Position numbers and translations under genes: made by a program. A DNA stretch of 64,000 bases, from NCBI RefSeq assembly GCF_022846255.1, contig NZ_AP025682.1; one strand, given 5' to 3'. Shown here piece after piece: positions 6,558 through 37,486 of this stretch. The stretch is from Escherichia coli. Its GTDB lineage: Bacteria; Pseudomonadota; Gammaproteobacteria; Enterobacterales; Enterobacteriaceae. How positions within the stretch are numbered: the first letter of the stretch is position 1; each line of letters starts with the position of its first letter. The notes beneath the pieces are model-generated. The model did no database searches, had not been told where the DNA came from, and worked only from the letters and a program-made list of their open reading frames with translations.

Positions 6558-12229
<5,672 letters not shown>

Positions 12230-24294: not shown

Positions 24295-24511
24295 CGTATT
24301 TCCTTTCTTAGGGTATAAAGTAGCGGGCAGCATATCAGCCACACTTCTTTGGGTAAAACTTTGTCGCGGGAATGATGACAAATCCCGGGGAAAAAGAAAC
24401 AATAGCAATATCCCGTATGAATATAATAAAGGCGGGTTTACCACGGACATCATAGCGTTAGCTTATTCATAGGCTATGATTGAGGAACAAGACGCGGAGC
24501 AGGAGGAAACC

Positions 24512-25150
24512 ATGCCCGGGCGCTTTGAACTAAAACCAACCCTGGAGAAAGTCTGGCACGCGCCGGACAATTTTCGCTTCATGGACCCGCTGCCGCCGAT
24601 GCATCGTCGGGGGATCATTATTGCCGCCATTGTATTGGTGGTCGGATTTCTGCTTCCATCTGATGATACGCCCAACGCGCCGGTGGTGACGCGTGAAGCG
24701 CAGTTAGATATTCAGTCGCAATCACAACCACCGACAGAAGAACAGCTGCGGGCGCAATTAGTCACGCCACAAAATGATCCTGATCAGGTGGCTCCGGTCG
24801 CTCCAGAACCAATACAGGAAGGCCAACCAGAAGAGCAGCCGCAAACCACCCATACGCAACCATTCCAGCCAGATAGCGGAATTGATAATCAATGGCGCTC
24901 CTATCGTGTCGAACCCGGTAAAACGATGGCGCAGCTGTTCCGCGACCACGGACTGCCCGCTACCGATGTCTATGCCATGGCGCAGGTAGAAGGCGCGGAT
25001 AAGCCACTGAGTAATTTGCAAAACGGGCAGATGGTGAAAATCCGCCAGAACGCCAGCGGCGTGGTGACGGGCTTAACCATTGATACGGGGAATAATCAAC
25101 AGGTCCTGTTTACCCGCCAGCCGGATGGCAGTTTTATTCGCGCGCGGTAG
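24512..25150 (+). CDS. ytfB: Cell-division-associated OapA-domain protein YtfB
   Basis: 212-aa product from ATG at 24512 ([23 protein letters not shown]...) preceded by AGGAGG; single TM, Pro/Gln-rich linker, C-terminal OapA region. Confidence 0.9.
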
Positions 25151-25781
25151 ATGAAGGGTCAACCAAAAGCCAGCTAAGGATCGTCTCTTTGATGACCTTA
25201 CGTCTGGCTTCCAGTGCCTGCGGTGAAACCATACTGATGTGATAAACCAGACCAAGCGTATGCTGGTTGATCAAATAATATCCCCCAAGCGCAGCAATAT
25301 TAATATTCACCTGCAATGGGTCGATATCTGGCTTAAAAATATTGTTTTTCTTCCCTTCATCCAATAAGGATTCCATTAACTGCAAGTGCGCATGGTTAAT
25401 TTCTAAAAGACGCTGTGACTTTGCATAATGCACACCCTTACTTTGATTTTCACTATGCACAATTTTTAAAAACCAGGGATTAGAAATATAATAATCCCAT
25501 GTAAAATCGATTATTTTCTCAATGGCTTTCTGTGGCGGAAGATCTGAGAAATCAAGGGCCTTTTCTTTTTGTCGAATATCGTTCCAGGTATATTCCAGTA
25601 CTTCGATAAATAAATTTTCTTTATTACCAAAGTGGTGATAAACCGTCTGTTTACTGCACCCCGCGGCCTTGACGATATTATCGACTCTGGCCCCTTCGTA
25701 ACCATATTCGGCAAATTCATTAACCGCGCATAACAGCAGCTTTTCTTTCAGGCTCTGTACGTTGCTGGTATCAAGATACAT
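25134..25781 (-). CDS. ytfA: TetR/AcrR-family transcriptional regulator (intact YtfA), divergent from the downstream operon
   Basis: 215-aa product from ATG at 25781 ([58 protein letters not shown]...) with TetR N-terminal HTH signature; 3' end overlaps ytfB 3' end. Confidence 0.85.
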
Positions 25782-25903
25782 AACGCTTCCCCACGACCTC
25801 TTCGTGGTGACTATCATAACCTGATTTGATTTCAGCTTCAGAAAAAAGGGCAAAAACTTGTACTTTCATCAGGTTATCAAATGTCCTGTGATCGCCATCG
25901 CAT

Positions 25904-25925
25904 ATCAACCAACTAGATGGTTGAT
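25904..25925. promoter_or_regulatory. Candidate TetR-type operator: 8-bp inverted repeat with 6-bp spacer (atcaacca-actaga-tggttgat) in ytfA/operon divergent intergenic region
   Basis: Perfect 8/8 inverted repeat located 69 bp upstream of the SDR gene start and within the ytfA upstream region. Confidence 0.5.
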
Positions 25926-25993
25926 CTTTTTATCCTCCAGTCGCAAGCTAATCATCACTAAGGAAACAAAATTCAAAAAAAGAGAGCTATTGT

Positions 25994-26785
25994 ATGAAAT
26001 CCACTCGTCCTGTTGCCGTGATTACCGGAGCCGCACGTGGTATTGGAAAGGGCTGTGCGCTGGAGCTTGCGCGTGGCGGATTTAATCTGCTGATTAATGA
26101 TCGTCCGGATGCGGATAGCGTAGAAAAATTACATGCCACACAACAAGAATGTCTGGCGGAAGGCGTGGAAGTGATTTGCTTCCCTGCTGATGTGGGCGAT
26201 CTCTCCCTGCATGAAGAGATGCTCGACGCAGCGCAAAACCAGTGGGGACGTCTGGACTGCCTGCTCAACAACGCAGGCATTTCAGTGAAAAAACGCGGTG
26301 ACCTTCTCGACCTCGAACCAGACAGCTTCGACCAAAATATTGCCATTAACACCCGCGCACCGTTCTTCCTTGCTCAGGCATTCAGTAAGCGCTTACTGGC
26401 ACAGCCGAAACCGGAAGCAGAACTGCCGCACCGCTCGATTATTTTCGTCAGTTCCATCAACGCCATCATGCTGGCGATGAATCGCGGCGAATATACCATT
26501 GCCAAAACTGCCGTCTCTGCCGCTGCTCGTCTGTTTGCTGCTCGCCTTTGTAATGAACAAATTGGCGTATATGAAGTGCGTCCTGGTCTCATCAAAACCG
26601 ATATGACTATTCCGGCAACGGCCTATTACGACGAACTGATTGCCAAAGGTCTGGTGCCGTGGGGACGTTGGGGTTATCCGGCTGATATTGCTTCCACTGT
26701 CCGCGCGATGGCGGAAGGTAAACTGATTTACACCTGTGGTCAGGCGGTCGCCATCGACGGCGGCTTAAGTATGCCGCGCTTCTGA
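25994..26785 (+). CDS. Short-chain dehydrogenase/reductase (SDR) family oxidoreductase
   Basis: 263-aa ORF with TGAARGIGKG cofactor-binding motif and YTIAK (YxxxK) catalytic motif. Confidence 0.85.
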   Translation: MKSTRPVAVITGAARGIGKGCALELARGGFNLLINDRPDADSVEKLHATQQECLAEGVEVICFPADVGDLSLHEEMLDAAQNQWGRLDCLLNNAGISVKKRGDLLDLEPDSFDQNIAINTRAPFFLAQAFSKRLLAQPKPEAELPHRSIIFVSSINAIMLAMNRGEYTIAKTAVSAAARLFAARLCNEQIGVYEVRPGLIKTDMTIPATAYYDELIAKGLVPWGRWGYPADIASTVRAMAEGKLIYTCGQAVAIDGGLSMPRF

Positions 26786-26794
26786 GGCTGAATC

Positions 26795-27637
26795 ATGAGA
26801 GATCTGTTACAACGCCCGGATTTATTCAGTATCAATACCGCGACACTGGGCTATAAAACGCCGCTGCCCGCCATTATTGATGCCTGCGCCGCACGCGGTA
26901 TTGGCGCCATTGCCCCCTGGCGCAGGGAGTTGCAGGGTGAAGATCTCCAGCAAATCGCCCGCCAGCTTGCTGCCAGTAACATAAACGTTTCCGGTTTGTG
27001 CCGTAGCACCTACTACACCGCACCGACGCTGGCGGAGCGCAAACTGGTGATTGACGATAACCGCCGGGCGCTGGACGACGCCGCTGTACTGAACGCCGCC
27101 TGTTATATGCAGGTGGTTGGCGGTCTGCCAATGGGAACAAAAGATCTGTACGAAGCACGGGAACAAGTGAAACAAGGGATTCGCCAGTTGCTGCCACATT
27201 CGAAAGAGGTCGGCGTGCCAATTGCACTGGAGCCACTGCACCCGATGACTGCTGCCGATCGTTCTTGTCTGTGCACGTTACGTCAGGCGCTGGACTGGTG
27301 TGATGAACTCGATCCCGATGGCGAATTTGGCCTCGGCGTGGCGGTAGATGTCTACCATGTCTGGTGGGACCCGGATCTCGCCAGTCAGATCCTGCGTGCC
27401 GGAAAACGCATCCTCGCGTTTCATGTTTCCGACTGGTTAGTGCCGACCACCGATCTGGTCAATGACCGTGGAATGCCGGGAGATGGTGTCATCAATATTC
27501 CGTCAATTCGTCGGCTGGTTGAAAACGCCGGATTTAATGGCGCTATTGAACTGGAAATATTCTCACCGTACTGGTGGCAGAAAGATATTAACAGCACGCT
27601 GGATATTAGCGTCGATCGCATCGCACATTATTGTTAA
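26795..27637 (+). CDS. Sugar phosphate isomerase/epimerase (xylose-isomerase-like TIM barrel) family protein
   Basis: 280-aa ORF starting 9 bp after SDR stop, GAGG RBS; family assignment by sequence resemblance to AP-endonuclease-2/TIM-barrel isomerases, moderate certainty. Confidence 0.75.
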   Translation: MRDLLQRPDLFSINTATLGYKTPLPAIIDACAARGIGAIAPWRRELQGEDLQQIARQLAASNINVSGLCRSTYYTAPTLAERKLVIDDNRRALDDAAVLNAACYMQVVGGLPMGTKDLYEAREQVKQGIRQLLPHSKEVGVPIALEPLHPMTAADRSCLCTLRQALDWCDELDPDGEFGLGVAVDVYHVWWDPDLASQILRAGKRILAFHVSDWLVPTTDLVNDRGMPGDGVINIPSIRRLVENAGFNGAIELEIFSPYWWQKDINSTLDISVDRIAHYC

Positions 27638-27646
27638 GGAATAATC

Positions 27647-28423
27647 ATGAGTGACCAACCCGTTCTGTTCAGCAGAGCGGCGGCTTCTTGCCGCCTGACA
27701 TTGAACCGTGAAGATAAATGTCATGCTATTAATGAAGAAATGATCGAATCTCTCGACCATTATTTAAATGAAATTGAAAATGACACGGCATTACGCTTAG
27801 TCGAATTAACGGCAACCGGCGATAAATTCTTTTGTGCGGGCGGCGATATTAAATCGTGGTCGGCCTATTCGCCATTAGATATGGGCAGAAAATGGATTAA
27901 ACGCGGTAATGACGTTTTTAATCGCCTGCGCAACTTACCCCAATTAACCGTTGCGAATCTCAACGGTCATACCATCGGTGGCGGTATTGAACTTGCCTTG
28001 TGCTGCGATATTCGTATCGCTCGCCCCGGCGCGAAATTCTCTAACCCGGAAGTGATGCTCGGCATGGTGCCAGGCTGGATGGGCATTGAGCGAGTGCTTA
28101 ATCAGGTTGGTCCTGTGGTCGGTCGCCAGATGCTGATGCTGGGTAAACGCCTGACGGCGCAGGAAGCTCAGACAGCGAATTTAATTGATGAAGTGGTAGA
28201 AAAAGAACAGGTGGAAAGCTGGATGGCGAACCAGTTAGCGCAGCTGGAAAAATGTGGTCCGGTGGCACTGGCACATATTAAGCAACTGATTCTGGCGCTG
28301 GAAAATAAACACGCCGATTACTCCCACCAGTTACTGGCTGGATTAATGTCCGCCACTCAGGATTGCCAACAGGCGACGCACGCATTTGCCGAAAAAGCCG
28401 GCGTGAGCTTCCACAATCAATAA
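27647..28423 (+). CDS. Enoyl-CoA hydratase/isomerase (crotonase-fold) family protein
   Basis: 258-aa ORF with crotonase motifs (FCAGGDIK; NGHTIGGGIELALCCDIRIA); AAGGA RBS. Confidence 0.85.
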   Translation: MSDQPVLFSRAAASCRLTLNREDKCHAINEEMIESLDHYLNEIENDTALRLVELTATGDKFFCAGGDIKSWSAYSPLDMGRKWIKRGNDVFNRLRNLPQLTVANLNGHTIGGGIELALCCDIRIARPGAKFSNPEVMLGMVPGWMGIERVLNQVGPVVGRQMLMLGKRLTAQEAQTANLIDEVVEKEQVESWMANQLAQLEKCGPVALAHIKQLILALENKHADYSHQLLAGLMSATQDCQQATHAFAEKAGVSFHNQ

Positions 28424-28432
28424 GGAAATTGT

Positions 28433-29974
28433 ATGCGTAAGTTATCAACCGCCGAGACACTGGCGGCGCAAATTCAGGACGGCGCAACCATTGCCATTAG
28501 CGGCAACGGCGGCGGTATGGTGGAAGCTGACCATATTCTGGCCGCCATTGAAGCGCGCTTTCTGCAAACCGGACACCCGCGCGATCTGACATTAATCCAC
28601 TCGCTGGGTATTGGCGATCGCGACAGCAAAGGCACTAACCGTTTTGCTCACGCCGAAATGCTCAAACGCATTATTGCCGGACATTTTACCTGGTCGCCCA
28701 AGATGCAGGAACTGGTGAAAAGCAATGCTATTGAAGCCTACTGTTTCCCTGGTGGCGTAATTCAGGCACTGCTGCGGGAGATCGGTGCCGGACGTCCGGG
28801 GCTTTTTACCCACGTTGGGCTGGGATCGTTTGTTGATCCACGCAATGGTGGCGGTAAGTCGAATGAATGCACTACCGACGACCTGGTAGAACTGATTGAA
28901 ATCGACGGTGAGACCAAACTTCGTTATCGCCCTTTCAAAGTGGACTACGCGATTTTGCGCGGCACCTATGCCGATCCGCGTGGCAACGTCAGCCTCGAAG
29001 AAGAGGCGATTGATATGGATAGCTATTCGATGGCGCTGGCAGCACACAACAGCGGCGGCAAAGTGTTCGTACAGGTCCGCGATGTGCTGGAAGCAGGTAC
29101 CATTGAACCACGTCGGGTCAAACTACCAGGAATTCTGGTCGATGGCATCGTTGAGCACCGCGAACAACCGCAAACCTATCTTGGTGGTTACGACCTGACG
29201 ATCAGCGGTCAACATCGCCGTCTAAGTTCTAACGACGCTATTGAACTGGTTAGTCATCCGGTGCGTCGCCTGATTGCCCGTCGGGCAGCGCGGGAACTGG
29301 TGGCAGGCGCTTCAACCAACTTTGGCTTTGGTATTCCCGGCGGTATTCCTGGGGTTGCACTGCGCGAAGGCGTGCCTTATCAAAGTTTGTGGCTGAGTGT
29401 AGAACAGGGTGTACATAACGGCATGATGCTGGATGATGCTCTGTTCGGCTGCGCCCGTAACGCCGATGCCATTATTCCATCACTCGATCAATTCGAATTC
29501 TACAGTGGCGGCGGTATCGATATCACCTTCCTCGGCATGGGAGAGATGGATCGGTACGGTAACGTCAACGTATCCCATCTCAATGGCAATCTCATTGGCC
29601 CCGGCGGCTTCCTCGAAATTGCGCAAAACGCCCGTAAAGTGGTGTTCTGCGGTACGTTTGACGCCAAAGGCAGCAAGATTGATGTAACGCCTGATGGCCT
29701 GCATATCGCCCAGTCAGGTCAAATCCCCAAACTGGTTACCCAGGTGGAAAAAATTACTTTTAGCGCCGCATACGCACAGCAAAGCAGTCAGGAAGTGCTG
29801 TATATCACCGAACGTGCGGTATTCCAGTTAACGGCAGAAGGCGTTGAATTAATTGAGATCGCCCCTGGCGTAGAGATTGACCGCGACATTCTGCCGTATA
29901 TGGCCTTCCGTCCGATTATCAGGCACCCACGCCTGATGGAAAGTAGCCTGTTTACGCCAATGGAGGATGCATGA
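28433..29974 (+). CDS. Family I CoA-transferase, fused alpha/beta type (YdiF-like acyl-CoA:acetate CoA-transferase)
   Basis: 513-aa ORF with glycine-rich N-terminus (ATIAISGNGGGMVEADHIL), resembles E. coli YdiF-type short-chain acyl-CoA transferases; AAGGA RBS. Confidence 0.8.
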   Translation: MRKLSTAETLAAQIQDGATIAISGNGGGMVEADHILAAIEARFLQTGHPRDLTLIHSLGIGDRDSKGTNRFAHAEMLKRIIAGHFTWSPKMQELVKSNAIEAYCFPGGVIQALLREIGAGRPGLFTHVGLGSFVDPRNGGGKSNECTTDDLVELIEIDGETKLRYRPFKVDYAILRGTYADPRGNVSLEEEAIDMDSYSMALAAHNSGGKVFVQVRDVLEAGTIEPRRVKLPGILVDGIVEHREQPQTYLGGYDLTISGQHRRLSSNDAIELVSHPVRRLIARRAARELVAGASTNFGFGIPGGIPGVALREGVPYQSLWLSVEQGVHNGMMLDDALFGCARNADAIIPSLDQFEFYSGGGIDITFLGMGEMDRYGNVNVSHLNGNLIGPGGFLEIAQNARKVVFCGTFDAKGSKIDVTPDGLHIAQSGQIPKLVTQVEKITFSAAYAQQSSQEVLYITERAVFQLTAEGVELIEIAPGVEIDRDILPYMAFRPIIRHPRLMESSLFTPMEDA

Positions 29975-32043
29975 GTCAGCTTGATGAGGCCATCCTTGAT
30001 GCACTGACACACGTTACTTTCCCAAAGGGTTTTGCACAGGCAGAACCCGCATGGGTTGTCACGGTAGACGGTGTTGATTACCCACTCTGGAAAACAGATG
30101 CCCTGGTAGTCGGCAGTGGTGCAGCCGGGCTACGTGCAGCTGTGGAACTTAAACGCCGCCAGCAAAATGTGTTAATCGCCACCGCCGGGTTATATATGGG
30201 GACATCGGCATGTTCTGGCTCTGATAAACAAACACTGTTTACCGCCGCTACCGCGGGCAACGGCGACAACTTCGCCAAACTGGCAGAGGCACTGGCGAGC
30301 GGTGGGGCGATGGATCACGACACCGCTTATGTTGAAGCGGTAGGTTCTCTGCACACTCTTGGCGGGTTGCAATATCTTGGTCTGGAATTACCGGAAGATC
30401 GCTATGGCGCGATTCTTCGTTATCAAACCGACCATGACGAAGCCGGGCGTGCAACCTCGTGTGGGCCGCGTACCTCAAGGTTAATGGTGAAAGTGCTGCT
30501 GGAAGAAGTACAGCGTCTTGCTATCCCAATGTTGGCCAGTGCAACAGTGATTAAACTGCTGCATCAGCGTGACGAAAACGGTGAAGACCGTGTGGCGGGG
30601 GCAATCCTCGCGACCGGTCATCGCGCCCATAACCCATGGGGGCTGGCAATTGTGACTGCGCCCAATGTGGTACTGGCAACAGGCGGGCCTGGCGAGCTTT
30701 ATCGCGACAGTGTGTATCCACACAAATGTTTCGGCTCGCTGGGGCTGGCGCTGGAGGAAGGTCTGACGTTAACGAATCTGACTGAAAGCCAGTTTGGTAT
30801 AGGCACACCGCGCAGCACGTTTCCGTGGAATTTGTCCGGCACCTATGTACAGGTGATCCCATATATCTATTCCGTGGATGCCGGGGGCAACGAGTATAAC
30901 TTCCTCGCGGATTACTATCGCACCACCCAGGAGCTGGCTTCAAACATTTTCCGTAAAGGCTATCAGTGGCCGTTCCACGCCACGCGGGTAATGGATTTTG
31001 GCTCCAGCTTGTTAGATATGGCAGTAGCGCAAGAGCAGCAACATGGTCGTCAGGTATTTATGGATTTCAATCGTAATCCAGAACCTGTGCCGGGTGACCT
31101 ACCGTTCTCATTAGATCGACTGGACGACGACGTTCGCGCGTATCTGGAAAATAACGACGCTCTGGCACCATCGCCCATCGAACGCCTGCAACAAATGAAT
31201 CCTCTGTCTATCTCGCTGTATAAGATGCACGGTTACGATCTCATCACGCAGCCATTGCAGTTTGCCATGAATAATCAGCACATGAATGGCGGCATTGAAG
31301 TCGATATCTGGGGACAAACATCTCTGCCCGGTTGTTTTGCGGTGGGGGAAGTTGCTGGCACACACGGCGTCACCCGACCTGGCGGCGCGGCGTTGAATGC
31401 CGGGCAGGTTTTTGCTGTTCGTCTGGCGCGCTTTATTGGTTGCACGCAAAAGCGGAATATTGATGGAGATATTGCACAGCTGGCAGCTCCGGCACTGGCT
31501 TCTATAAGAGAGATCATTACTCAGGCGCACGATAACGGGTCCGGGATGCCGTTGTCGGTTGTGAGAGAAAAAATTCAGGCACGAATGTCTGACTATGCGG
31601 GATTTATTTGCCATGCCGATAAAGTCCGACGTGCCACTCGTGATGCCCTGCTATTGAACGAATTTGTCCAACGACATGGATTGGCAATCAAACATGTGGG
31701 TGAAGTTGCCGAGCTGTTTATGTGGCGGCATATGGCGCTGACTTCTGCCGCGGTATTAACACAATTAACGCATTATATTGATGCTGGTGGTGGTAGCCGT
31801 GGGGCGCGTATGGTTATTGATCCACAAGGCAAATGCCTACCACAAACTCGTCGCGGCGCAAAAGAAGAATGGCGTTTTCGCTCTGAACTCGCTGAAGACA
31901 AAAATCACAAATTAACAATTCAATATTCGCAAGGTTCTTTTATTACCGAAGTAAAGTCTTTACGTATGCAACCGTGTATTAACGGTATTTACTTTGAAAA
32001 AAACTGGCCAGACTTTTTAAAGGGAGACATTTACACACAATAA
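29971..32043 (+). CDS. FAD-dependent oxidoreductase, fumarate reductase/succinate dehydrogenase/L-aspartate oxidase flavoprotein superfamily, with long C-terminal extension
   Basis: 690-aa ORF; dinucleotide-binding motif (DALVVGSGAAGLRAAVEL) and C-terminal FAD-binding signature (CFAVGEVAGTHGVTRPGGAALNAGQVF); start ATG overlaps upstream stop (ATGA); GGAGG RBS. Confidence 0.8.
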   Translation: MSQLDEAILDALTHVTFPKGFAQAEPAWVVTVDGVDYPLWKTDALVVGSGAAGLRAAVELKRRQQNVLIATAGLYMGTSACSGSDKQTLFTAATAGNGDNFAKLAEALASGGAMDHDTAYVEAVGSLHTLGGLQYLGLELPEDRYGAILRYQTDHDEAGRATSCGPRTSRLMVKVLLEEVQRLAIPMLASATVIKLLHQRDENGEDRVAGAILATGHRAHNPWGLAIVTAPNVVLATGGPGELYRDSVYPHKCFGSLGLALEEGLTLTNLTESQFGIGTPRSTFPWNLSGTYVQVIPYIYSVDAGGNEYNFLADYYRTTQELASNIFRKGYQWPFHATRVMDFGSSLLDMAVAQEQQHGRQVFMDFNRNPEPVPGDLPFSLDRLDDDVRAYLENNDALAPSPIERLQQMNPLSISLYKMHGYDLITQPLQFAMNNQHMNGGIEVDIWGQTSLPGCFAVGEVAGTHGVTRPGGAALNAGQVFAVRLARFIGCTQKRNIDGDIAQLAAPALASIREIITQAHDNGSGMPLSVVREKIQARMSDYAGFICHADKVRRATRDALLLNEFVQRHGLAIKHVGEVAELFMWRHMALTSAAVLTQLTHYIDAGGGSRGARMVIDPQGKCLPQTRRGAKEEWRFRSELAEDKNHKLTIQYSQGSFITEVKSLRMQPCINGIYFEKNWPDFLKGDIYTQ

Positions 32044-32135
32044 TTTTCAATATTTCCTCTGTACCTGATTTTTATTGCCTATTACATGGAAATACCAACA
32101 ACCAGGGTTTATTAATATAATTAAAAGGTTTAAAA

Positions 32136-33413
32136 ATGAATAAAATAAAGAATTATCGATGGCATATGATTGCCCTCGTATGCTTTATCACTGTAATCAA
32201 TTATCTGGACAGAACGGCGTTAGGTATTGCGGCTCCAACGATTATGGAGACAACCGGAATAACCAAAGAACAATATTCATGGATTGTCAGTGCATTCCAG
32301 TTGGCCTATACATTGGGGCAACCGATAATGGGCTTCTTTATTGATACCGTGGGTCTGAAGTTAAGTTTTGCGATATGTGCCGCAATCTGGGGCCTGGCGA
32401 CAATGGGGCATGCCTTGACAGGAACATGGTCAGGTCTGGCATTTATGCGCGCCCTGATGGGTTTCAGCGAAGCATCGGCAATTCCTGCGGGTGTAAAAAC
32501 CGCATCAACATGGTTCCCGGCAAAAGAGCGTGGCGTGGCGACAGGTGTATTCAATATGGGTACCTCACTCGGCGCGATGCTTGCTCCACCGTTGATTGCC
32601 TGGTGCATTATGTTTCATAGCTGGCAATTTGCGTTTATTGTCTCAGGTAGCCTTGCTTTACTCGCGGCTTTATTTTGGTTCTTTTGTTATAAAGATCCAA
32701 AAGATGCTAAACGCCTTTCTGATGAAGAGCGCCACTATATTGAGTCTGGGCAAGAACAGCATCTTAAAACAGATAAGAAAGAAAAAACGTCAATCAAGCA
32801 TATCCTCAGCCAACGTAATTTCTGGGGGATTGGCATCGCGCGTTTTCTCGCTGACCCGGCATGGGGAACCATTAACTTCTGGGTACCGATTTTCTTCGTC
32901 GAAACGCTGCATTTTAGCCTGAAAGAAATTGCCATGTTCGTCTGGCTGCCTTTCCTGCTGGGCGATCTCGGCTGTTTAGCCAGTGGTTTTGTCGCGAAGT
33001 TCTTCCACGATCGCGGCGTGAGTTTAATTAACTCACGAAGAATTACCTTCACTATTGCAGCCGTCATTATGATGACGATTGGTCTGGTGAGTATTGTCGA
33101 AAATCCCTACATCGCCGTATTACTGATTAGCATTGGCGCATTCTCGCATCAATGTCTTTCTACTGTTGCAGCAACTCTGGGCGGTGACCTATTCAAAAAA
33201 GACGAAGTAGCTACCGCTGTGGGTATGGCAGGAGCCTGTGCATGGAGCGGTCAGTTGATTTTCAACCTGTTTATCGGGGCATTCGTTCACATTATTGGCT
33301 TCGCGCCGTTCTTTATTGCCCTGGCTTTCTTTGACATTATTGGCGCCATTGCGCTGTGGATGCTTATCAAAGTTAAAGACGAAGAACCACAAGTACAGTT
33401 AGCGACAAGCTAA
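32136..33413 (+). CDS. MFS transporter, anion:cation symporter (ACS) family (hexuronate/aldonate-type)
   Basis: 425-aa 12-TM ORF with MFS signature (YLDRTALGIAAP; GxLxDRxG-like loop), resembles ExuT/DgoT-type organic anion permeases. Confidence 0.85.
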   Translation: MNKIKNYRWHMIALVCFITVINYLDRTALGIAAPTIMETTGITKEQYSWIVSAFQLAYTLGQPIMGFFIDTVGLKLSFAICAAIWGLATMGHALTGTWSGLAFMRALMGFSEASAIPAGVKTASTWFPAKERGVATGVFNMGTSLGAMLAPPLIAWCIMFHSWQFAFIVSGSLALLAALFWFFCYKDPKDAKRLSDEERHYIESGQEQHLKTDKKEKTSIKHILSQRNFWGIGIARFLADPAWGTINFWVPIFFVETLHFSLKEIAMFVWLPFLLGDLGCLASGFVAKFFHDRGVSLINSRRITFTIAAVIMMTIGLVSIVENPYIAVLLISIGAFSHQCLSTVAATLGGDLFKKDEVATAVGMAGACAWSGQLIFNLFIGAFVHIIGFAPFFIALAFFDIIGAIALWMLIKVKDEEPQVQLATS

Positions 33414-33422
33414 TTATTTTAC

Positions 33423-33464
33423 ATAGAAACGCTATAATTTAGCTTTGTAGCGTTTCTATTTTTC
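33423..33464 (+). terminator. Rho-independent terminator after MFS transporter gene (possibly bidirectional)
   Basis: Perfect 11-bp stem atagaaacgct ... agcgtttctat followed by tttttct. Confidence 0.6.
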
Positions 33465-33555
33465 TCATAAATTAAACGTCTCTTCCAAAACGTTCAGTAT
33501 CTACTGGCATTGCTTCGCAAATTTATGATTTAGCGAATATATCTAAATAACTATT

Positions 33556-34824
33556 CTAAATTGCCCCCCTGAACGCCTCTGCCATTAACTCTTGCTCACG
33601 ACCAGGTAATCGAAGACGCTCGGCAATGATTCGCCACTGACTGACAATCCCTCTAAAATTAGCAATAATGTCATCTGCTTCTGTCAAACCAAGTCGAAAA
33701 TAATCCACAACTTCTCGAGCTAATTCCAAATCAAGTGCATTATCATTTTCTGTAATATTGAGTTTTAGACCGTCAGACCTGGCAACAGGATTCAAATCAT
33801 ATGCCTCAGAAAGCCGCCAACCTTTTCCCGGTATCAAGATATATCCATGATTACGTAAATGGTCATCGGTATTAGAAACAAGAATATTAAAAACAATCCT
33901 GGACCAGAGTTCCTTAAGGTCAGTATTAGTCTGCGCTCCATGTCTGATAAGAACATCTGCTAATTCCAGATAACTCACACCTGTAGAGGCATCTTCACCA
34001 TCCTGATGCCTGGTTAGTGTCATAGCCGAAGCAAAATGCAGACGCCTTCCCGCATTAGTGCGGTCAAAACGACGAACCATAAAACAATGGTAATTGCTGG
34101 CAAATTTATGCGCCTGAGCAGGTGCAACATTCAGTCCACAGCCAACAGCAAGTGCATTAACGACCATTTCCCATCCACCAACATCATACTCATCTTTTAC
34201 ACTGGGAAATTTAGCGATGTAGAGATACCCAGCTTCATCAACAACACTGGCTTTCGGACGTGTCCCCCCTAATGATCCCCCCGGAGCGATTAGCATTCTT
34301 AACCATTTTTGCCCCATTAGCTCTTTATTATCAGGATCTTCTTCAATTGCCCGGCTAGCCCTTTCCAGACTCGCTATTTCGGTAAATGGTGGGGCTGCAA
34401 CATCAATGCGATTATCAAGAAACTCTCCAGCGTCTTCACGTTTGTATCGAAGAGCCCCAACCCGATAAAGATCATGAACACCTAGTAGATAATCAGACTC
34501 ATAAAGGTGGGAGTCTTTATCACATAACCCGTCTCGAATATCCCTCTCAAAACGACGCTTCATTAGCATACGCCCCCAACGATCCGGGCAGGAATCACTA
34601 AATGCACCAAATTTATCCTTTGGAGGAATTGGGTACTGTGCTCCCTCATACAACATTATTTCAGGATCTAACTGAATGAAATTAAGTGAAGGATCTGCAA
34701 GCGCCTTTTTATCGTACTCAAACTCAAATATCTCACGCGTCCGAGTGCGGCGACTGTGTAAATAACCAATCCGCTCCGGACCATCCAGGCCTTCCCAATC
34801 CGCATACACTCCGATTAATGCCAT
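33556..34824 (-). CDS. HipA-family serine/threonine kinase (type II toxin-antitoxin toxin candidate)
   Basis: 422-aa ORF; HipA N-terminal motif (FSDSCPDRWGRMLMKRR resembles HipA FDNLLPDSPIVRDRIVKRY), glycine-rich loop (IAPGGSLGGTRPKASVV), catalytic motif (LVSNTDDHLRNHGYIL); AAGGAAA RBS; starts 2 nt after upstream HTH gene stop. Confidence 0.85.
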   Translation of the reverse strand: MALIGVYADWEGLDGPERIGYLHSRRTRTREIFEFEYDKKALADPSLNFIQLDPEIMLYEGAQYPIPPKDKFGAFSDSCPDRWGRMLMKRRFERDIRDGLCDKDSHLYESDYLLGVHDLYRVGALRYKREDAGEFLDNRIDVAAPPFTEIASLERASRAIEEDPDNKELMGQKWLRMLIAPGGSLGGTRPKASVVDEAGYLYIAKFPSVKDEYDVGGWEMVVNALAVGCGLNVAPAQAHKFASNYHCFMVRRFDRTNAGRRLHFASAMTLTRHQDGEDASTGVSYLELADVLIRHGAQTNTDLKELWSRIVFNILVSNTDDHLRNHGYILIPGKGWRLSEAYDLNPVARSDGLKLNITENDNALDLELAREVVDYFRLGLTEADDIIANFRGIVSQWRIIAERLRLPGREQELMAEAFRGAI

Positions 34825-34826
34825 AA

Positions 34827-35318
34827 TTAATTTCCTTTTAACGGTTTTTTTATCGGTTTTAATAGTGCTGCAAGAGAGGTTGATGTTTCTCCTGTAATAG
34901 ATGGCGTTGAGCCTTCTGCCAGTGCTGTTAAATCCGTGGTGAGTAAACCTTCTTTCTCATACCTCGTTTGAAAAGGGTCTGTCTGAATACCTTCTTCATT
35001 TTTACCTGATGAACGAGAAAGCCCTCTTTTTTTAATCAAACGGGAATCCTGGAGCTGACGCCCTAAGTCGTCTTCAGCTGCAAGCTTATTTAAATCCGTT
35101 TCCAGGCCCAAAACCTGCATCACAGACAAATATGCCCCTATCGTGACCCCTGCACTTCCTGACTCCAGAGAGCGCAATGTTATTGGCGACATCCCAGCAC
35201 GTTCAGCAACTTGCTTTGCGGTAAGCCTGCGTCGTAAACGAGCAAGTTTCAGCCGCTCACCAAATTCACTAAGCATCTGATTCGTATAAGGGAGTAACGG
35301 TGCTGTTTTTTTACCCAT
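34827..35318 (-). CDS. XRE-family HTH protein, HipB-like antitoxin candidate with ~90-aa Ser/Thr-rich C-terminal extension
   Basis: 163-aa ORF; HTH_XRE region ([32 protein letters not shown]); immediately upstream of and co-oriented with the HipA-like gene; no clear SD at the first ATG, alternative start at Met15 (35276) possible. Confidence 0.75.
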
Positions 35319-37177: not shown

Positions 37178-37486
37178 TTATTCAGCCTCCTGTCTGGGTC
37201 AGCCGAATCCCGGGGAGGCAAGGAACGTGTTAAAGGTCGGCTGAAAAATGACGCGTTATAGTACTGACATACCCCGCTAAACTCAAGGCCAGCCGACAAA
37301 TAAATCTCATCCTTCACCAAATCGTACTAACACGCTGATTTGAAGTTCATCACACTTCATCATGGTGTTTTTTTGAACAACTGCATCAGAAATGGTCACC
37401 ATCCACTTCTTTATCATTGATTAAAATTAAATCAGAAGATCACCACAAGAGGAGAGCACACAAAGTCAGCCGTCGAGGAGGTATCT

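Follow-up and report, generated by a model that had tools for sequence, protein, structure and literature searches.

In Escherichia coli K-12 the gene ytfA is a pseudogene, and the question raised by this locus is what the intact gene controls where it is still present, and through which DNA site. We examined this question in a stretch of 64,000 nucleotides from an E. coli genome (NCBI RefSeq assembly GCF_022846255.1, contig NZ_AP025682.1; hereafter the window), in which a full-length ytfA gene is oriented divergently to a six-gene operon and a 22-bp palindrome is located in the intergenic region between them. A sequence-only reading of the region had proposed that YtfA is a ligand-responsive TetR repressor of the operon, with two inverted repeats as candidate operators. 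Comparison of the locus across genomes suggests that YtfA is an intact and typical local TetR-family repressor of the neighbouring operon, and that the 22-bp palindrome is very probably its operator.

The regulator gene starts with an ATG codon at 25781, as judged from the translation of the open reading frame, and encodes a protein of 215 amino acids. Pfam analysis placed a TetR_N domain (PF00440) at residues 19–61 (E = 3e-14) and a TetR_C_29 domain at residues 83–201 (E = 6e-30); the predicted recognition helix is SKQTVYHHF, and the RefSeq entry for the identical gene is annotated as a TetR/AcrR family regulator (WP_001350383.1). The sequence matched 119 TetR-family entries in the PDB. The AlphaFold2 model, for which 77 homologues were used as input, has a predicted local distance difference test (pLDDT) score of 96.8 and an all-helical TetR fold with 12 helical segments. 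The top Foldseek matches to this model were all TetR-family proteins, with template modelling (TM) scores of up to 0.82, and the fold ranking in the PDB was DIP1788 (3npi, TM 0.82), followed by E. coli RutR and then by FadR- and KstR2-type proteins. Members of the TetR family have about 9–10 helices overall, bind palindromic operators as homodimers and are relieved from DNA by a small molecule. YtfA has the features that define the family, a TetR_N helix-turn-helix (HTH) domain and an all-helical C-terminal ligand-binding/dimerisation domain. With the 215-codon reading frame and TetR_N at residues 19–61, the proposal that the regulator is full length and carries an N-terminal TetR HTH is borne out. 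At its 3′ end the regulator gene is convergent with ytfB (24476–25150, plus strand), and the two genes overlap by 17 bp; the same overlap is annotated in strains NC101 and K-12.

The operon spans 25994–33413 on the plus strand and its six genes are separated by gaps of 9, 9, 9, −4 and 92 bp (Table 1). The regulator is divergent from it across an intergenic region of 212 bp, as had been described earlier. TetR-family regulators that act locally are as a rule divergent from their targets and separated from them by no more than about 200 bp. Nine other taxa have the regulator-operon pair, in three different chromosomal contexts. In E. whittamii, E. albertii, Salmonella, Klebsiella spallanzanii, Entomohabitans, Leminorella and two metagenomic orthologues (60% and 57% protein identity), as in E. 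coli, the regulator is divergent from an operon that runs from the short-chain dehydrogenase/reductase (SDR) gene through the TIM-barrel, enoyl-CoA hydratase, coenzyme A (CoA) transferase and flavoprotein genes to the MFS transporter gene. YtfA thus shows the divergent orientation, the short intergenic region and the linkage kept across taxa that mark a local regulator.

Table 1 Features of the ytfA-operon locus (positions in the window)
Feature	Position	Strand	Basis or remark
Full-length YtfA, TetR-family regulator, 215 aa	25134–25781	−	Translation, Pfam, AlphaFold2 fold, RefSeq annotation
Predicted regulator promoter: −10 TATGAT (25818–25813), −35 CTGAAG (25841–25836), transcription start ~25806	25813–25841	−	Predicted from sequence
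Second inverted repeat: ATAACCTGAT (25816–25825) and ATCAGGTTAT (25868–25877)	25816–25877		Perfect 10-mer pair
Conserved box CTTTCATCAGGTTATCAAATGTCC	25863–25886		Upstream of CRP-like site; TTCA, GTTA and AA columns (operon strand) invariant or nearly so across genera
CRP-like site TGTGA-tcgcca-TCGCA (TGTGATCGCCATCGCA)	25887–25902		9/10 core positions of TGTGA-N6-TCACA; one base from palindrome
Predicted YtfA operator ATCAACCA-ACTAGA-TGGTTGAT	25904–25925		Conservation and motif/helix tracking
Predicted operon promoter: −35 TTGATC (25921–25926), 17-bp spacer, −10 CAAGCT (25944–25949), transcription start ~25956–25957	25921–25957	+	Predicted from sequence
Gene 1: short-chain dehydrogenase/reductase	25994–26785	+	NCBIfam PRK12745, '3-ketoacyl-ACP reductase'
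Gene 2: xylose-isomerase-like TIM-barrel protein	26795–27637	+	AP_endonuc_2; near S. meliloti SMc04130 (PDB 3ju2)
Gene 3: enoyl-CoA hydratase/isomerase (crotonase)	27647–28423	+	
Gene 4: family-I CoA transferase, YdiF-like	28433–29974	+	PDB 2ahu, 5e-114
Gene 5: 690-aa flavoprotein, fumarate-reductase/L-aspartate-oxidase type	29971–32043	+	FAD_binding_2
Gene 6: MFS transporter, relative of the D-galactonate transporter subfamily (uptake of organic acids)	32136–33413	+	
Intrinsic terminator closing the operon	33423–33467	+	15-bp stem (33423–33459), then T-run

The perfect 8-bp inverted repeat with a 6-bp spacer had been placed at 25904–25925 and this position is exact; taken as two arms of 11 bp, 10 of the 11 positions are paired. 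The palindrome hardly varies across 11 orthologous control regions, which range from Escherichia to the 57% orthologue, while the flanks diverge. Its core is invariant in 8–10 taxa, the block GATCAACCATCT(A/G)GTTGGTTG is invariant in the alignments (A2 and A3) against diverging surroundings, and in Entomohabitans the exact 22-mer was found in an otherwise unrelated intergenic region of 423 bp, at the same distance of about 65 bp from the first operon gene. Of 5426 complete E. coli genomes, 3133 (about 58%) carry the control region, each in a single copy. A 30-nt stretch containing the operator is at least 95% identical in about 3086 of these carriers, and the 81-bp surroundings are 80–90% identical in 1567. 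No second near-identical copy of the operator was found in the 3133 carrier genomes by BLAST, at a sensitivity of about 19–20 nt.

The other inverted repeat of the intergenic region, a 10-bp pair, exists and is perfect, with its right arm where it had been reported; its left arm lies at 25816–25825 and not at 25817–25826. In 2000 dinucleotide shuffles of the 212-bp region, a perfect 8-bp inverted repeat with a spacer of up to 10 arose in 2.8% and a 10-bp inverted repeat with a spacer of 11–60 in 0.65%. The shuffle statistics alone favour the second repeat and are not decisive for either, and conservation reverses the ranking. The second repeat is perfect only in the window allele and in E. whittamii, is matched at 7–8 of 10 positions in other E. 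coli alleles, where no compensating changes were seen, and cannot be recognised in other genera. Moreover, neither of the two predicted transcripts includes it. The earlier suggestion of a second candidate operator is therefore not upheld, and a role of the repeat as a structure was likewise rejected because it decays without compensation. Its two ends overlap elements that are conserved separately, namely the TATGAT −10 of the regulator and the box at 25863–25886. The box was compared by eye with CRP, FNR and IHF sites and no convincing match was seen; it may be the site of another factor or an UP-like element.

A further line of evidence for the palindrome came from distant homologues of YtfA. 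CAACCA-N2/N6-TGGTTG sites flank 9 of 12 alphaproteobacterial homologues with 34–40% identity (the set includes Belnapia, Tistrella, Ferrovibrio and Oceanibaculum), just upstream and/or just downstream of the gene. Near the homologues 38 pattern matches, representing about 16 sites, were counted, against 0.6 expected from the rest of the 1.1 Mb of DNA. The presence of the motif tracks the recognition helix: the motif-bearing alphaproteobacterial loci encode NKQLVYHHF, to be compared with SKQTVYHHF in E. coli, and the three loci without the motif encode NKRMIYHHF or NKRLLYHHF. When this rule was applied to five new loci that had not been used to derive it, the motif was present in the gene flank of all three loci of the KQ type and of neither of the two of the KR type. 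Loci with a KQxVYHHF-type helix thus carry the motif and KR-type loci do not. Three independent lines of comparative sequence evidence, the conserved footprint, the motif that travels with the regulator and its covariation with the recognition helix, point to the palindrome as the cognate operator of YtfA, as had been proposed.

In the distant homologues the motif mostly takes the form of a 16–18-bp box, (A)TCAACCA-nn-TGGTTGA(T), and the form with a 6-bp spacer is the enterobacterial one. The N2 and N6 forms are related by a tandem TGGT-TGGT, and both registers are present in Belnapia and in common E. coli alleles. Many of a group of alphaproteobacterial and metagenomic loci (L011, L014–L017, L019, L021 and L091) have two operator-like sites, of which one is upstream of the regulator gene and the other coincides with its 3′ end or lies just beyond it, ahead of the following gene on that strand. 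Such an arrangement is suggestive of operons that begin with the regulator and are controlled at two points. The Belnapia homologues adjoin genes for an ABC transporter and a 3-hydroxybenzoate 6-monooxygenase, and other homologues adjoin different genes; because the regulons differ in this way, no ligand could be transferred to YtfA from the neighbours of its distant homologues.

The position of the palindrome relative to the predicted operon promoter suggests how it may act. A CAnnnT hexamer with an invariant GCA is found exactly 17 bp past TTGATC in 10 control regions; the hexamer is CAAGCT in Escherichia and CATTTT or CATCTT elsewhere. The spacing from the CRP-like site through the palindrome, TTGATC and the 17-bp spacer to CAnnnT is identical in these 10 regions. 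With the predicted transcription start site as reference, this model would centre the CRP-like site at −61.5, or at −60.5 in two taxa, and the operator would extend from −52 to −31. The CRP-like core is matched at 8–10 of 10 positions in all orthologous control regions, the mismatch moves between the half-sites and the site always abuts the operator; in Leminorella it is a perfect TGTGA-N6-TCACA. The only other match with at most one mismatch in the window, TTTGAAGTTCATCACA at 37339–37354, lies between ribosomal-protein genes and yjfY/ula. The 57% metagenomic orthologue (L090) has an operator of the N2 type, which overlaps a perfect TTGACA next to its CRP-like site, yet the distance of 26.5 bp from the CRP centre to the −35 is the same. 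The control region of this locus (7686–7768) has a second operator, a perfect 22-bp palindrome, CAACCAACCGATCGGTTGGTTG, which follows just after the predicted start site, near the start of the operon. These arrangements, including that of L090, fit repression at a weak, CRP-dependent promoter.

For the regulator gene no strong promoter was found by consensus scan. Its predicted −10 is TATGAT without variation in Escherichia, Salmonella, Klebsiella and Leminorella, and is replaced by TATAGT in the 60% orthologue and by TATAAT in Entomohabitans. It is always located about 30 bp upstream of the ATG, and its distance from the palindrome is 62 bp in E. coli and about 270 bp in Entomohabitans. Because of this distance, autoregulation of YtfA through the palindrome seems doubtful.

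The explanation that best accounts for the locus as a whole, to which we would assign a probability of roughly 0.7, is that YtfA binds the palindrome and represses the divergent operon until released by a ligand, with activation by CRP. A dimer of YtfA, or possibly a pair of dimers, would occupy ATCAACCA-N6-TGGTTGAT. The promoter-proximal arm of the palindrome holds the likely −35, TTGATC, and the distal arm ends one base from the putative CRP site near −61.5; since the arms overlap the one and adjoin the other, bound YtfA would block RNA polymerase and/or its CRP-dependent recruitment. Binding of a small-molecule effector, either the organic acid that is imported or an intermediate in the form of a CoA thioester, to the C-terminal domain would release YtfA from DNA. 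Expression of the operon would then require both that its substrate is present and that cAMP-CRP is active, an AND logic like that of lac. The earlier expectation that the ligand would identify the substrate of the operon is reasonable, though the effector could equally be a CoA-thioester intermediate. Of the sequence-only reading, the intact regulator, the K-12 fragment, the divergent layout and the probable role of the palindrome as operator are retained in this model, and the second operator is dropped; the conserved CRP-like site beside the palindrome, the predicted overlap of the operator with the −35 and the distance of the regulator −10 from the palindrome are added to it.

Several observations weigh against this explanation. 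No sigma-70 promoter was found in this region by consensus scanning, and CAAGCT, the hexamer proposed as the −10, agrees with the consensus at only 2 of 6 positions in E. coli. Two CRP-like matches with at most one mismatch were found in the window, and about 1.9 would be expected by chance; as the match is not significant at this scale, the support for the CRP-like site comes from its position and its conservation. The arms of the palindrome never vary, so that conservation alone cannot separate binding by a protein from formation of a hairpin. A single dimer cannot read the N2 and N6 spacings of the relatives alike, which makes the stoichiometry ambiguous. Literature searches that used the gene name, accessions of the proteins, PDB codes and combinations of the enzymes returned nothing on full-length YtfA or its operon. 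Finally, homology does not settle the class of ligand, since the nearest folds bind uracil (RutR) or acyl-CoAs (FadR and KstR2). The sequence matches of YtfA run into the C-domain of the acyl-CoA-binding FadR and KstR2, yet the fold search puts 3npi and RutR higher, and no conclusion was drawn from these two rankings, which disagree.

Three other explanations were considered. The one that survives best, which we regard as unlikely, is that YtfA binds the palindrome without being a simple repressor of the operon, and acts instead as an activator or co-activator with CRP, mainly as an autoregulator through a second promoter embedded in the palindrome on the minus strand (TTGATA-17-GACATT), or on multiple, distant targets. 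Co-regulators are also known to use the place that the site occupies, with a class-I CRP position on one side and the −35 on the other, and the minus-strand arm TTGATA matches a −35 at 5 of 6 positions; moreover, some TetR-family regulators have multiple targets (PMC6790063), and RutR binds many sites (PMC2475637). Repression is nevertheless the better fit for the overlap with the −35, which is kept in all orthologues, and for the second operator of L090 after the predicted start site. GACATT is not conserved as a −10, the A at position 2 being lost in Salmonella and Entomohabitans, and a considerable distance separates the palindrome from the regulator's conserved promoter with TATGAT. The BLAST result for the carrier genomes, with no second near-identical operator in any of the 3133 at the sensitivity given above, also argues against multiple targets.

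It is very improbable that transcription starts at a promoter upstream of 25904 and that the palindrome, as part of the leader, forms an RNA hairpin that serves as intrinsic terminator or as attenuator. A terminator scan did flag 25904–25925 followed by CTTTTTATCC, and the RNA of the palindrome folds at −9 kcal/mol (z = −3.1). The T-run is not conserved, however, Entomohabitans having TGGTTGATCCAGATTT at this place, the stem is weak with G-C pairs at 3 of 8 positions, and the palindrome has no match in Rfam. The arms show no compensatory change, and their DNA sequence stays the same even between loci with unrelated flanks. In addition, the half-sites are found beside unrelated genes wherever a homologue with a KQ helix is encoded, both upstream and downstream, and with differing spacings that would break a common hairpin. 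That some other, unlinked protein binds the palindrome, which would then lie beside ytfA by coincidence, is just as improbable, for although the tie between YtfA and the site comes from sequence comparison, the motif lies beside YtfA homologues in Alpha- and Gammaproteobacteria regardless of the neighbouring genes, and its presence follows the recognition helix of the linked TetR protein.

The proposed repression by YtfA raises the question of what the operon does. Its genes suggest a CoA-dependent route in which an organic acid (a carboxylate) is taken up, activated by transfer of CoA and processed in steps that resemble beta-oxidation. Searches of NCBIfam, Pfam and the PDB found no close characterised relative and returned generic names only. 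A cluster in Albidovulum has the SDR, CoA transferase and TIM-barrel genes in common with the operon and an acyl-CoA dehydrogenase in the place of the flavoprotein, which is suggestive of an acyl-CoA/enoyl-CoA redox step only. A promoter-like sequence, TTTAAA-17-AATAAT, is located at 32016–32044, at the end of the flavoprotein gene and before the sole sizeable gap of the operon (92 bp, 32044–32135), and the MFS transporter gene may have an internal promoter of its own. Between the operon terminator and rplI, the minus strand at 33556–35318 encodes a HipA-family toxin of 422 aa and, upstream of it, an HTH protein of 163 aa. In Salmonella an EamA transporter gene is found at this place, and the right flank of the island is therefore variable.

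The state of the locus differs between strains. The region 25000–26100 of the window is 100% identical to the corresponding regions of NC101, NGF1 and other B2-type genomes. The ytfA of K-12 (b4205) is a 402-bp pseudogene that aligns with the 215-aa gene from about codon 82 to codon 215 only, which agrees with its earlier description as a short fragment; yjfZ stands in place of the HTH domain, the intergenic region and the operon. The O157 strain Sakai has the same yjfZ state, lacks the operon and carries in addition an IS609 element. In the Sakai record (L088, 26842–28589) IS609 separates yjfZ from ytfB, and the annotation of this place contains no ytfA feature. The operon state is also present at the ytfB-rplI position in Salmonella, and the operon is found in E. 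albertii and E. whittamii; since these hold the operon state, the K-12 fragment is best read as a deletion scar. More widely, the operon is present in some Salmonella enterica and in several other Enterobacterales. The stretch of the CFT073 record that runs up to rplI, just short of the locus, has new-style locus tags only. In some sources the Salmonella and Leminorella orthologues are named 'HTH-type transcriptional repressor KstR2'. This name is not supported by the scores and looks like annotation carry-over.

Comparison with known systems places YtfA closest in fold, among characterised proteins, to RutR (YcdC), the TetR regulator of pyrimidine catabolism in E. coli, with a TM score of 0.75–0.84 and a sequence match of 4e-7. 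The RutR operator is TTGACCAnnTGGTCAA, with key positions 4 and 13 (PMC2475637), and it shares with the box of the YtfA subfamily, TCAACCAnnTGGTTGA, an ACCA-nn-TGGT core, the length of 16 bp and positions 4 and 13 (PMC2475637). By analogy both may be likened as TetR regulators of catabolic operons that respond to a small ligand. In contrast, identity in structural alignments is about 21%, the C-terminal Pfam family of YtfA, TetR_C_29, differs from that of RutR, operator positions 2–3 and 14–15 are swapped, the spacer of enterobacterial YtfA sites is 6 bp instead of 2 bp, and RutR has multiple targets whereas YtfA apparently has a single one. The NCBIfam models also speak against YtfA being an orthologue of RutR (TIGR03613, 37.8 bits against a cut-off of 368; PRK15008, 33.6 against 230). 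At the DNA level YtfA thus appears RutR-like, but it is not a RutR. Assignment to the acyl-CoA-responsive FadR or KstR2 was rejected in the same way, with 47.4 bits against a cut-off of 200 for the Bacillus FadR model and with the FadR and KstR2 folds ranking below 3npi and RutR. The best sequence match (1.4e-16 over residues 14–207) is DIP1788 (3npi), a structural-genomics TetR protein of Corynebacterium diphtheriae, which is also the best structural match and covers both domains, with an identity of only 24%; being uncharacterised, it gives no functional transfer.

In its layout the YtfA system resembles the classical pairs TetR-tetA, AcrR-acrAB and QacR-qacA, which are likewise divergent across about 200 bp, with a palindromic operator over the target promoter (predicted for YtfA) and derepression by a ligand (expected for YtfA). 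The targets of these pairs are efflux pumps, whereas that of YtfA would be a catabolic operon, and YtfA further differs in having a single operator that is apparently clear of its own promoter and is abutted by a CRP-like site. With lac-type promoters it would share a CRP site at −61.5, a weak core promoter, a substrate-specific repressor and the AND logic. The repressor is of the TetR and not of the LacI type, and the predicted position of the operator is between CRP and the −10, overlapping the −35, as opposed to over +1. The architecture is thus that of a textbook local TetR repressor, and the value of the system is practical and not conceptual.

The predicted operator, the predicted CRP-dependent promoter and the helix-motif rule would provide reagents (a reporter, electrophoretic mobility shift assay probes and a derepressed mutant) for a search for the inducer and the substrate, and the correlation between motif and helix offers a testable specificity rule for the TetR_C_29 subfamily. 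Because K-12 is without the N-terminal half of ytfA and the whole operon, the regulator and the pathway have escaped the standard knowledge base of E. coli, and yet more than half of the complete E. coli genomes are carriers, including B2 commensals and pathogens such as NC101. It is possible, and we put it forward as a tentative view, that the operon controlled by YtfA and CRP represents an undescribed CoA-dependent pathway for a gut-relevant organic acid, and that YtfA stands for a subfamily with the operator code KQxVYHHF/ACCA-N2/N6-TGGT that extends from Alpha- to Gammaproteobacteria. If this is true, loss of the pathway in K-12 and O157 would explain why it has never been studied, the effector of YtfA would name the nutrient, and prediction of regulons would become possible for hundreds of uncharacterised homologues.

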